Part shown: piece by piece, positions 30,569 through 35,534 of the stretch
How the letters are laid out: each line of letters starts with the position of its first letter
Numbering within the stretch: the first letter of the stretch is position 1
Origin: Leptospiraceae bacterium
GTDB taxonomy: Bacteria; Spirochaetota; Leptospiria; Leptospirales; Leptonemataceae
NCBI GenBank assembly: GCA_040217195.1
Contig: JAVJNR010000004.1
Span: 384,001 to 448,000 of the forward strand
Reading direction: 5' to 3'
DNA length: 64,000 bases
Notes under the pieces: generated by a model
What the model saw: the letters and a program-made list of their open reading frames with translations, nothing else
What the model was told of the DNA's origin: nothing
Database searches by the model: none
Translations under genes and position numbers: made by a program

Positions 30569-31552
30569 TTACACTCGGGCTTTCTTTTGATATACGGACC
30601 ACATACTCTTAACCAGAGTATTGGCATCGGAATACTTTGCCTTCCAGCCCAACAGCTCATGGGCTTTCTTCGCACTGGCCACCAGAGATGCAGGATCGCC
30701 TGGTCTACGAGGTGCCTCATCCACAGCAATGGCATGCCCGGTAACTTTTCTCGCTTCATCTATGATTTCCTGGACCGAAAGTCCCTGTTCCGATCCGAGG
30801 TTCACGGTCAGACTCCGACCTTCCCGTTTCAAATACTCCATAGCCAGAATATGAGCGGAGGATAGATCGTTTGTATGAATATAATCCCGGATACATGTAC
30901 CGTCCGGAGTATCGTAGTCTTTGCCGAACAGTTGCATTCTGGGCCTCATTCCACTGGCCACTTCCATGACAATTGGCAGCAGATTCTGGGGTCGATTTTC
31001 CAGACCAAGAACACGACCATGAATATCGTATCCTGCAGCATTAAAATACCGCAAAGAGGCAAAACGCAGGCCTGTTAACTCGGACATCCAGGACAGGTTT
31101 TGCTCCATAACCAGCTTTGTAAATCCATAGTAGTTAATGGGCTTTCTGGGATGATTTTCATCCATGGGCACATATTCCGGGGTACCATAAACGGCTGCAC
31201 TGGAGCTAAATACCAGATTCTTCACACCGGCCTGAACCATTCTTTCTACCAGATGAAAGGTTCCCCGGACATTGTTCGCACTATATTTTGCTGGCTCCAC
31301 CATAGATTCTCCGGCGGCCTTCAAAGCGGCGAAATGGAAAACTGTGTCCATGGGATGAGAAAAGAAGGAATCCAGGTCTTTCTCGGAACCCACATCTCCT
31401 TCTATAAAGGAAACATTCTCGGATTGGGGCAAATTTTCTGGATTTCCGGTGACTAAATTGTCCAGAAGCACCAGTTCATGCCCGGATTCCAGCAAATCAT
31501 GAACGATGTGGGCGGCGATATATCCGGCCCCACCGGTAATTCCGATCTTCAT
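30569..31552 (-). CDS. galE: UDP-glucose 4-epimerase
   Basis: TGGAGYI, SSSAAVYG, YGFTK, LRYFN, DGTCIRDYIH. Confidence 0.95.
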   Translation of the reverse strand: MKIGITGGAGYIAAHIVHDLLESGHELVLLDNLVTGNPENLPQSENVSFIEGDVGSEKDLDSFFSHPMDTVFHFAALKAAGESMVEPAKYSANNVRGTFHLVERMVQAGVKNLVFSSSAAVYGTPEYVPMDENHPRKPINYYGFTKLVMEQNLSWMSELTGLRFASLRYFNAAGYDIHGRVLGLENRPQNLLPIVMEVASGMRPRMQLFGKDYDTPDGTCIRDYIHTNDLSSAHILAMEYLKREGRSLTVNLGSEQGLSVQEIIDEARKVTGHAIAVDEAPRRPGDPASLVASAKKAHELLGWKAKYSDANTLVKSMWSVYQKKARV

Positions 31553-31673
31553 GCTTCTGACTAACCTCGAATTTCTCTTGAAAACGGCCCGACGGCAGGA
31601 AACCCTGTTCGCAGGGAGCTACGGCACTGGATGCCGGCGGTGGTCTACCCTGTAAACGAAAAAGGAGAACCTC

Positions 31674-31859
31674 ATGTCTGAAGAAAAAGAACAACTGGTT
31701 GTGGCGAGCAAAACACGAGCCTATATCAAGTCCCAGGGCTGCATGGTTTCGGCTGATGCGGTGGAGCAATTGAACAAAAAGATATACGAAATTATCGACG
31801 CTGCCATTCAAAGAACCAAGGACAACAAGAGATCCACTCTACGTCCGCACGACTTCTAA
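31674..31859 (+). CDS. Bacterial histone-fold DNA-binding protein (Bd0055 / Leptospira histone type)
   Basis: 61 aa: LVVASKTRAYIKSQG-x-SADAVEQLN...R-x5-RSTLRPHDF (RxTxxxxD); strong SD AAGGAG. Confidence 0.88.
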   Translation: MSEEKEQLVVASKTRAYIKSQGCMVSADAVEQLNKKIYEIIDAAIQRTKDNKRSTLRPHDF

Positions 31860-31880: not shown

Positions 31881-32282
31881 ATGCCTCCAGGAGTGAAAGT
31901 TATAAAATGGCCCTACAAAGAGGCTCCCACGGAAGAATCAGTTTCCAGGGAGCTGGAGGGCTTTGGTTTTCAGGTATACGACCTTCAGACCTGCGAACCC
32001 TGGTTCGAACGTAGCATGCACAGCCATGATTACGATGAGATCCGGGGGGCTGTGGATGGAGTCATTACTTTCCATTTTGAGGATGGCCCGGTAACTATCG
32101 AAGCCGGGGACATACTTCTGGTCCCGGCAGGGATACCCCATGAAGTGCGCTCCCATAATCCCCGGCCCTTTACTGCTTATAAAGGTTCCAGGGATGGTAA
32201 TCGCAGCGTTACCGAACATGGAAACGCTGAAGGCAGTGTGGAGCAGCTGAAAAGTACTGGCCAGTATCAGGGGAATGCCTGA
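31881..32282 (+). CDS. Cupin domain protein
   Basis: HSHDYDE...GDILLVPAGIPH cupin motifs. Confidence 0.85.
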   Translation: MPPGVKVIKWPYKEAPTEESVSRELEGFGFQVYDLQTCEPWFERSMHSHDYDEIRGAVDGVITFHFEDGPVTIEAGDILLVPAGIPHEVRSHNPRPFTAYKGSRDGNRSVTEHGNAEGSVEQLKSTGQYQGNA

Positions 32283-33018
32283 GACACCGGTAAGTAAGGA
32301 ATTTTCAGGTCTGGTTTTTCTGGATCTGGATGGAACGATTGAGGATAGCCGGCTAGACATGGCCGGCTCCGCCAATGCAGTTCGCAGAAAATTATCCCTT
32401 CCAGAAATCGATCCGGTCTCTCTCTATCCTTTCGTAATGAAAGGGATGGACTACCTGTATAGACAGTGCATACCCGAAGCCCTGGAGCAGCCGGATCTCA
32501 TCCCGGGACTTGGACCGAATGCAGACGAATCCTCGGTCCTTCTATCTCTGGCAAGGCTGTATCATCAAGAGTACAGCCAATGCATTGTAGATAATACTAA
32601 ATGCTATCCCGGAATGGACATAGCTTTGATGGAGCTATCCAGACAATGTATTCTGGGTCTGTACACGAACAAGCCTGAAAGACTTTCTAGATTGTTGCTG
32701 GAGAAGCTGGGAATTCTGCAACATTTTACGGTGATCTATGGAGGCGATACGTTGCCAGAAAGCAAGCCTTCGGCACTACCGCTGAATACAGGAATGTCTG
32801 AAATCTCCGCAAAGTACAGCCTTTCTGCGGAAAAGATCCGCAGCCGTTGCTTTATGGTTGGGGATTCCGGCGGAGACATTAAGGCAGCAGCGGAAGCGAA
32901 AATTTCATCTATCTGGGCGGCCTACGGCTACTACTCGGAGGAGCCTGCTGAAAAACCGGATTATGTTGCGGGTCAACCGTCCGATCTACCAGAATTAATC
33001 TTCAACCTCTTGAAATAA
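32275..33018 (+). CDS. gph: HAD hydrolase, phosphoglycolate phosphatase-like
   Basis: DLDGT, TNKP, KP and MVGDSGGD motifs. Confidence 0.8.
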   Translation: MPETPVSKEFSGLVFLDLDGTIEDSRLDMAGSANAVRRKLSLPEIDPVSLYPFVMKGMDYLYRQCIPEALEQPDLIPGLGPNADESSVLLSLARLYHQEYSQCIVDNTKCYPGMDIALMELSRQCILGLYTNKPERLSRLLLEKLGILQHFTVIYGGDTLPESKPSALPLNTGMSEISAKYSLSAEKIRSRCFMVGDSGGDIKAAAEAKISSIWAAYGYYSEEPAEKPDYVAGQPSDLPELIFNLLK

Positions 33019-34688: not shown

Positions 34689-35534
34689 TTAACCTTCTGC
34701 AGCTCGTCTGGCGGCTACTTCCGTAACCAGTCTTGCTCCCAGAAAAGTCCATACTGGCAATAGGTCGGCCCCGGTGGCTACTGCGCCGGTGGCAGAATCT
34801 GCAACGTTAGCGGCTGCAGGCAGATAGGATTTCACTTTGTCTGCGATGGTACCTGCATGATCCTTGGCTACGCCGATGTAAGAATCCAGAGGCCCTGCAA
34901 GCGAATTGAGCATTTCTGTCGCCTGTGCGGCTCCACCTCCAGCCAATGATCCAAATTTATCTGTAATTCCGCTATTGGAATTCATGAGCTTCTGGATCAG
35001 TCCGGCTCCGCCTTCTACAGCATTGTCCAGAAAAGGTAGCGCTACTTCAATACTTGCAAAATAGATGGCCATTTCTTTGCCTGCATCCAGTTCTTTGAAC
35101 TGGCTCACCTTTTCGGAAACACCACCAGGAATGAGTTTGTACACTGCATAGGCTATGGCCAGAGCCTTTACCCCTGCATCCAGGGCCTGCTGAGGATCGG
35201 ATTCAAAAGTGCGTTTCTTGGCACCACCACCTCCTCCGAACAGACTGAGTACATTCTTAATACCTGCATAACCGGCAATGACCTTATCGCTGGTATCGAT
35301 GTAGCCCATAACCTTAAGCGCATCCTGCATCTCTTCAGACTCGGCCAGAGCGCGGGCCTTTTCAATCACCTCAGGACTGGCATCGGGAACGTAGGCTTTG
35401 ACTCCATCCTCAAAGTTATTGTAGAACTTGAACCCCGGGGACCCCGGTACAATCTTATCGAGACTGGACAGCAACTTGACTGTAAAGTCGTCCTGGCTGT
35501 AATCGGAAAGCATTTCATTGGCTTTTTGTGACAT
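34689..35534 (-). CDS. Hypothetical Ala/Gly-rich helical protein
   Basis: 281 aa ORF with strong SD AGGAGG; no recognised motif. Confidence 0.75.
   Translation of the reverse strand: MSQKANEMLSDYSQDDFTVKLLSSLDKIVPGSPGFKFYNNFEDGVKAYVPDASPEVIEKARALAESEEMQDALKVMGYIDTSDKVIAGYAGIKNVLSLFGGGGGAKKRTFESDPQQALDAGVKALAIAYAVYKLIPGGVSEKVSQFKELDAGKEMAIYFASIEVALPFLDNAVEGGAGLIQKLMNSNSGITDKFGSLAGGGAAQATEMLNSLAGPLDSYIGVAKDHAGTIADKVKSYLPAAANVADSATGAVATGADLLPVWTFLGARLVTEVAARRAAEG

Follow-up and report, generated by a model that had tools for sequence, protein, structure and literature searches.

Histones of the face-to-face (FtF) type are defined by a predicted toroidal tetramer and by a conserved Arg and Asn, both of which are absent from the bacterial dimer histones, which carry the motif RKTxxxD (as described in PMC11390915). 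The FtF histone HLp of Leptospira perolatii (PDB 9QT0, 9QT1 and 9QT2) is reported in PMC12701072 to bind DNA without sequence preference and to wrap approximately 60 bp. According to that source its tetramer is held by R49, S52, N53, R55, T61 and F63, the largest contributors to DNA binding are R59, K21, K15, S14 and K17, and the gene lies beside a coiled-coil gene and MAP. LA_2458 of Leptospira interrogans, which is assigned to the same orthologous group and to the FtF type (PMC10627809, PMC11390915), is reportedly the second to fourth most abundant protein of the cell, enriched in the nucleoid and not deletable (PMC10627809). HU and Dps are reported to be lacking in both L. interrogans and L. 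perolatii (PMC12701072).

Two more distant histones provide further points of comparison. Bd0055/HBb of Bdellovibrio bacteriovorus (PDB 8FVX, 8CMP) belongs to the bacterial-dimer subtype, does not go beyond the dimer, and acts on DNA by bending or coating it. HTkC of Thermococcus kodakarensis (PDB 9F2C) is an archaeal FtF tetramer that wraps DNA; a preprint describes it as hypercompacting DNA, which HLp does not (10.64898/2025.12.06.692711). Homologues of the L. interrogans histone have been described throughout the Leptospirales (PMC10627809), and the published histones of this order include that of Leptonema illini (PMC10627809; PMC12701072, where the species is listed in Fig. 1b).

The histone gene

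The window analysed here, a stretch of 64,000 nucleotides, contains a gene whose translation agrees exactly with the 61 residues quoted in an earlier note on this DNA and is followed by a stop codon (Table 1). The product (7.0 kDa, pI 8.9) has a short, acidic N-terminus. On the opposite strand a stop interrupts the reading across the same interval. The strong Shine-Dalgarno sequence that the note had also described is indeed present, and it is unchanged among six sequences of the same genus. All 41 candidates recovered in a protein search were homologs (57-100% identity), and in five loci of the same genus the protein is 89-97% identical, compared with 51-67% for the third positions of codons that specify the same residue. 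This is therefore a real gene and not a chance reading frame.

The Pfam Histone model (E 0.037) and the NCBIfam archaeal histone model NF043032 (E 0.019; 15.3 bits, with a cut-off of 50) both score the gene below their cut-offs, so that it is labelled hypothetical; that it would be easily missed had been rightly foreseen. Model PF00808 has no match anywhere in the genome of origin (an assembly of 10 contigs and 4.61 Mb, 93.7% complete), nor did the searches turn up a second histone there.

Table 1. Features of the histone locus (positions within the window)
Feature	Coordinates	Strand	Remarks
galE, UDP-glucose 4-epimerase	30569..31552	-	TIGR01179, 368 bits (cut-off 262); divergent neighbour
galE/histone intergenic stretch	31570..31673	.	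five loci of the same genus agree at 96-102 of the 104 nt
Candidate sigma-70-type promoter	31578..31606	+	TTGAAA, 17 nt, AACCCT; putative, picked out by eye
Candidate 5'-leader stem-loop	31613..31651	+	Shine-Dalgarno sequence outside the stem
Shine-Dalgarno sequence AAGGAG	31662..31667	+	6 nt before the ATG of the histone gene
Histone gene	31674..31859	+	61 aa and stop; predicted FtF alpha3 histone, HLp ortholog
Metal-binding cupin	31881..32282	+	H47, H49, E53, R55, H87; likely divergent acireductone dioxygenase (MtnD-like)
HAD phosphatase, Gph-like	32275..33018	+	Below all equivalog cut-offs

Relation to known histones

The proposal that the gene encodes a bacterial singlet histone was borne out. 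Its best relative in the PDB is HLp (9QT0), with which it shares 35 of 59 residues (59%) in a gap-free alignment (E 5.8e-19); HBb/Bd0055 follows at E 0.008-0.01 and HTkC at 0.65. A profile built from 41 homologs preserved this order (1e-30 for HLp, 3e-9 for HBb and 1e-7 for HTkC). The earlier note had seen a likeness to the histones of both Leptospira and Bdellovibrio; the former holds, whereas Bd0055 (E 0.01) belongs to another subtype.

In the AlphaFold2 model of the monomer (mean pLDDT 77.8, pTM 0.48), helices span residues 2-20 and 26-51 and a single turn is formed at 58-60, in agreement with the truncated third helix that had been suggested. A Foldseek comparison with known histones, proposed as a check, had a divided outcome: the top rows are all histone folds (HLp ranks first and second, followed by HBb and HTkC), but none reaches E 0.001. 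The fit of the model to HLp is poor (TM 0.47, rmsd 5.2 A), as is expected of a histone folded without its partner, and the monomer model alone is therefore weak evidence.

The subtype can be judged from individual residues, for which the numbering of the query is that of HLp minus 2. The RD clamp R53-x-T55-xxxx-D60, noted beforehand as a loop-2 RxTxxxxD motif, is directly readable in the sequence. R47, N51, R53, T55 and D60 do not vary in any of the 41 sequences that we tabulated after the removal of identical ones, comprising 33 distinct sequences from Leptonemataceae, the family of the query (loci L001-L013 were assigned to it from record titles and likeness), and 8 from the other family of Leptospirales. 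The three-helix fold of alpha3 histones, in which alpha2 is shortened and alpha3 reduced to one turn, is seen in the gap-free HLp alignment, the helices of the model and the Foldseek rows. R47, N51 and R53 correspond to HLp R49, N53 and R55, which include the Arg and Asn at the interface where the two dimers meet, and the query reads R53-S54-T55 (RST), with no Lys or Arg right behind the motif Arg, as the FtF definition demands. HBb has the alpha3 fold with short alpha2 and alpha3 and the RD clamp in common with the query; in contrast, it carries S and D in place of R47 and N51, and RKT instead of RST. Archaeal nucleosomal histones (HMf type), whose alpha2 and alpha3 have their full length, differ from the query in that its alpha3 is confined to one turn and its NF043032 score is below the cut-off. 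Judged by these residues, the subtype is face-to-face (HLp-like), rather than the dimer type of Bd0055/HBb.

Most of the functional residues of HLp are retained. The five main DNA-binding residues of HLp (R59, K21, K15, S14, K17) correspond to R57, K19, K13, S12 and R15, so that the main DNA-binding residues are common to the two proteins, each encoded by a single gene in its genome. Among the 11 DNA-contact residues of HLp, seven are identical in the query, two are conservatively replaced (R15, S54) and two differ, namely V25 and A27 in loop 1, which stand in place of T27 and G29. Conserved Lys residues on alpha1 are a further mark of FtF histones: K or R occupies the positions of K13 and R15 in 41/41 sequences and that of K19 in 39/41. 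Four of the six tetramer residues are identical (R47, N51, R53 and F61), whereas D50 and H59 replace S52 and T61 at hydrogen-bond positions. An acidic residue 50 accompanies H59 in 18/22 sequences and H59 occurs in 7/11 of the others, which is unconvincing as a covarying pair. A Cys in loop 1, remarked upon in the earlier note, is present (C23, where HLp has F25) and was dismissed as a special feature, being common in the family (27/33 sequences, and 3/8 in the other family). The net charge of the protein is +2 and that of its core +4 (+2 to +3 for cores of the other family). The tree of these histones (49 rows, 55 columns) was mostly unresolved, and nothing was inferred from it.

By analogy with HLp (PMC12701072), two monomers would pair head-to-tail via alpha2 and bridges between loops L1 and L2, loop 2 being clamped by R53 and D60. 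Two such dimers would join face-to-face via R47, N51, R53 and the C-terminal F61, and S12, K13, R15, K19, K52, T55 and R57 would form a basic belt on the DNA backbone. The resulting ring-shaped homotetramer would wrap approximately 60 bp without sequence preference and would probably act as an abundant organiser of the chromosome. The changed positions V25, A27, D50 and H59, and a net charge of only +2, stand against this explanation. On balance, the alignments and the analogy with HLp make it very probable that the gene encodes a genuine FtF histone, orthologous to HLp and likely to form a DNA-wrapping tetramer.

Region upstream of the histone gene

The 104 nt that precede the histone ATG are 92-98% identical in five loci of the same genus. 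Within the last 60 nt, 56-59 positions match, compared with 28-50 in front of four other genes of the locus; this conservation is limited to the genus. What the alignments show is strong selection on the signals for expression, and nothing beyond that. The region is likely to hold divergent promoters together with the 5' leader of the histone mRNA. The candidate promoter of Table 1 was not flagged by a consensus promoter scan. Scanning for promoters and terminators returned 1 and 2 sites, respectively (means of 1.7 and 1.5 in shuffled sequences), none of them at the histone gene.

In the candidate leader stem-loop, 98.8% of the cells pair and no pair is changed on both sides; the structure is therefore compatible with the alignment but unsupported by it. 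A small hairpin in L006 shows one apparently compensatory change, which is a single event and was left out of the support. A non-coding RNA was rejected for the upstream region: no Rfam family covers it (the best match, at E 0.55, stays under the gathering threshold), in folding the entire intergenic region does not surpass shuffled sequences (z -0.22 and +0.54) and there is no covariation.

Distribution and genomic context

Of 156 Leptospirales genomes, 141 yielded a histone ortholog, always in one copy, and so did 40 of the 42 Leptonemataceae genomes. The 15 genomes without a match remained negative with the histone profile as well. Ten of them (G043, G044, G050-G056 and G059; five genera, 91-99% complete) possess neither a protein nor a profile match, and the claim of a histone in every member of the order therefore needs qualifying. 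A gene of the HU family is present in 10/10 of these genomes, while genera g32 and g34 have a histone and no HU-family match. The histones of genera g18 and g19 diverge fast. Those of L062-L066 and L080 (from genus g19 and one metagenome locus) show 41-53% identity, keep R47, N51 and R53 and, from putative starts, carry N-terminal extensions of ~20-30 aa that are apparently helical and change from acidic to basic. Histones across the Leptospirales have already been published, so the finding is not new in kind; the query is one more ortholog of a structurally solved family known throughout the order.

The arrangement of the neighbouring genes was as described beforehand: galE, on the minus strand, starts 121 nt upstream of the histone gene, the cupin gene begins 21 nt after the histone stop and the HAD gene overlaps the cupin gene by 8 nt. 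In 27/27 Leptonemataceae genomes with a close cupin ortholog, the cupin gene comes next after the histone gene, at 8-267 nt (three weak matches, with E above 1e-5, were left out of this count). The HAD gene follows in 26/27, the last locus being cut by a contig end, and 23 of the 24 histone-cupin loci fetched have a divergent galE. The histone-cupin-HAD synteny, whose survey across the Leptospiraceae had been proposed as a check, is a property of the query's own family alone, the cupin being found in 0/114 genomes of the other family. There, in six sampled genomes, the histone gene directly precedes MAP, and a long coiled-coil-like ORF is visible upstream in five. In the genome of origin 58 kb separate the MAP ortholog from the histone gene, and the coiled-coil gene lies on another contig. 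The histone gene of this family has left the coiled-coil/MAP locus of Leptospira and is now situated between galE and the cupin-HAD pair.

In PMC12701072 the name SMC is given to the long gene that precedes the Leptospira-type histone (L074:204-3434, L072:5-2851). We found no SMC domain in either copy at E 1e-4; apolipoprotein-like and other coiled-coil-type Pfam models matched below cut-off. Further along the window (34689-35534, minus strand), a 281-aa protein with no Pfam or NCBIfam family shows 87-97% conservation within the genus and 47-56% in more remote genera; in the latter its gene still adjoins that of the HAD protein.

The cupin and HAD genes

Across 42 sequences of the cupin (model pLDDT 91.8), H47, H49, E53 and R55 never vary, and at least 90% keep H87. 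Like acireductone dioxygenase (ARD, MtnD; PF03079; PDB 4QGM, 4QGN), the cupin displays His-x-His-x3-Glu-x-Arg and a distal His, that is, the metal ligands and catalytic Arg with the spacing given for MtnD in PMC3698126. Its fold resembles that of MtnD/ARD (Z 9.9, rmsd 2.3 A over 107 residues), and hhalign to three canonical ARDs gave a probability of 89% (E 2e-6). Unlike MtnD, the protein is about 50 aa shorter, scores 20.5 bits against a PF03079 cut-off of 27, and departs from the pair of substrate-orienting Phe residues, with V89 for the second Phe and F42 one residue off. In a wide fold search, ARDs ranked 2 and 6 (Z 9.9, 9.1), no more than about 1 Z apart from a sugar isomerase and a JmjC protein, and Foldseek returned generic cupins only.

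Steps of the methionine-salvage pathway were taken from PMC6302742. The genome of origin has mtnA and mtnB above cut-off, and canonical mtnD, mtnC and mtnX were not found in it; the MtnX family is absent from 42/42 genomes of the family. mtnB is present in 28 of the 42, of which 25 have both the cupin and the HAD gene and the remaining three have canonical mtnD, two of them also mtnC. Twelve of the 14 genomes without mtnB also lack the cupin, and the remaining two, which have it, are genomes of 54% and 58% completeness. In the other family, canonical mtnD occurs in 110/114 genomes. These counts come from related genomes, which are not independent, and reduced genomes lose genes together. Against a role in salvage, three genomes carry both the cupin and canonical mtnD, two carry the HAD gene without mtnB or the cupin, and the cupin and mtnB are not neighbours. 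Since the pair tracks mtnB and complements canonical mtnD and mtnC, it may well represent a divergent acireductone dioxygenase and a phosphatase, the HAD protein possibly catalysing the phosphatase step. This identity of the enzymes, by which the two would replace MtnD and MtnC in methionine salvage, is put forward tentatively, at a little less than even chances.

Relatives of the cupin 63-72% identical to it occur in Myxococcota, Nitrospirota and Proteobacteria; none was found at E 1e-25 in 400 other Spirochaetota genomes (no further genome of the family among them), nor in viral contigs or plasmids. Second copies of the cupin in genus g11 (L057:2574-2978, L058:2723-3103, L059:2608-2997) have no histone gene beside them and adjoin a methylmalonyl-CoA mutase gene (two) or a GAF-cyclase gene (one). 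A literature search, with subscription journals mostly outside its reach, found nothing linking the cupin-HAD pair to methionine salvage or this histone to a cupin, and the word "cupin" is absent from the main text of PMC11390915 and from five supplement files of PMC12701072.

Abundance and other nucleoid proteins

The abundance, nucleoid enrichment and apparent essentiality mentioned above are features of LA_2458, whereas the query is known from its sequence. Among 5000 randomly drawn pieces of 61 codons its codon use ranks at the 92nd percentile, with 23 ribosomal-operon genes having their median at the 89th, and the codon signal of high expression is weak in this genome. Unlike L. interrogans and L. 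perolatii as they are reported in PMC12701072, the organism has HU-like and Dps-like genes. The former (L022:1477-1884; G000:C2:339924-340328, minus strand) encodes an HU/IHF-family protein of 135 aa with a net charge of +19 and a Lys/Ala-rich N-terminus, found in 31/42 genomes of the family and in 0/114 of the other; taken whole, the HU family has a match in 96 of the 156 Leptospirales genomes. The Dps-like protein scores below NCBIfam cut-offs. The nucleoid may therefore have other organisers besides the histone, which would share it with these two proteins. By analogy with Leptospira we infer that chromatin in this organism may be histone-based.

Alternative explanations

A tetramer is not the only form in which such a protein might act. 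It could remain a dimer of the Bd0055/HBb type and bend or coat DNA instead of wrapping it, as might be suggested by the short alpha2 and alpha3 shared with HBb, by the weak HBb matches and by the departure of D50 and H59 from HLp at the dimer-dimer interface; moreover, R45A alone is reported to shift the binding mode of HTkC, with a phenotype reminiscent of a bacterial dimer histone (10.64898/2025.12.06.692711). However, the dimer histones described in PMC11390915 lack the FtF-type Arg and Asn and carry RKTxxxD, where the query has R47, N51 and RSTxxxxD, and we regard a dimer as very improbable. It is unlikely, too, that the protein is an FtF tetramer of minor or condition-specific importance in a family in which the tailed HU-like protein is the main organiser. 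The wide occurrence of that protein in the family, the Dps-like gene and the fast divergence of the histones in g18 and g19 would agree with such a role, and some archaeal FtF histones are reported to be less expressed and dispensable. Against this, more genomes of the family keep the histone (40 of 42) than keep the HU-like gene (31 of 42), the region in front of it is very conserved, and its codon score exceeds that of the HU-like gene, which is in the 76th percentile.

The constant place of the cupin and HAD genes behind the histone gene raises the question of whether they form a dedicated histone operon, whose products would modify, demodify or bind the histone. One JmjC protein at Z 9.1 in the fold search and three SET-domain genes in the genome (G000:C1:118167-118451, C10:728561-728854 and C10:689715-689969) could be cited in favour. 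The cupin, however, is absent from 13 of the 40 histone-bearing genomes of the family, so the histone does not need it, as well as from every genome of the other family and from 5/5 histone-bearing genomes of non-spirochaetes. It follows mtnB rather than the histone; its four-ligand His-His-Glu-His site is typical of small-molecule enzymes, its close relatives occur in three other phyla, and the second copies of g11 stand apart from any histone gene. Such a histone-directed role is extremely improbable. A looser connection, in which a histone-led operon with a cupin-HAD pair replacing MtnD and MtnC would co-regulate the supply of histone with the recycling of methionine and SAM, is quite improbable as well. 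A functional tie of the pair to chromatin is unlikely on the whole. We favour the reading in which the cupin and HAD genes are probably co-transcribed metabolic passengers, presumably of methionine salvage, and dispensable to the histone.

Conclusions

A family of bacteria in which an FtF histone occurs together with HU-like and Dps-like proteins provides a non-pathogenic test system, for example Leptonema illini, for the division of labour between histones and classical nucleoid proteins. Were the histone and methionine salvage to be joined in one operon after all, in a genome with three SET methyltransferases, bacterial chromatin would be tied to methyl metabolism. If the cupin is a divergent MtnD, the hole in the methionine-salvage pathway of Leptonemataceae would be filled and a highly conserved cupin family that also occurs in Myxococcota, Nitrospirota and Proteobacteria would gain a function; this side result may matter more than the histone itself.
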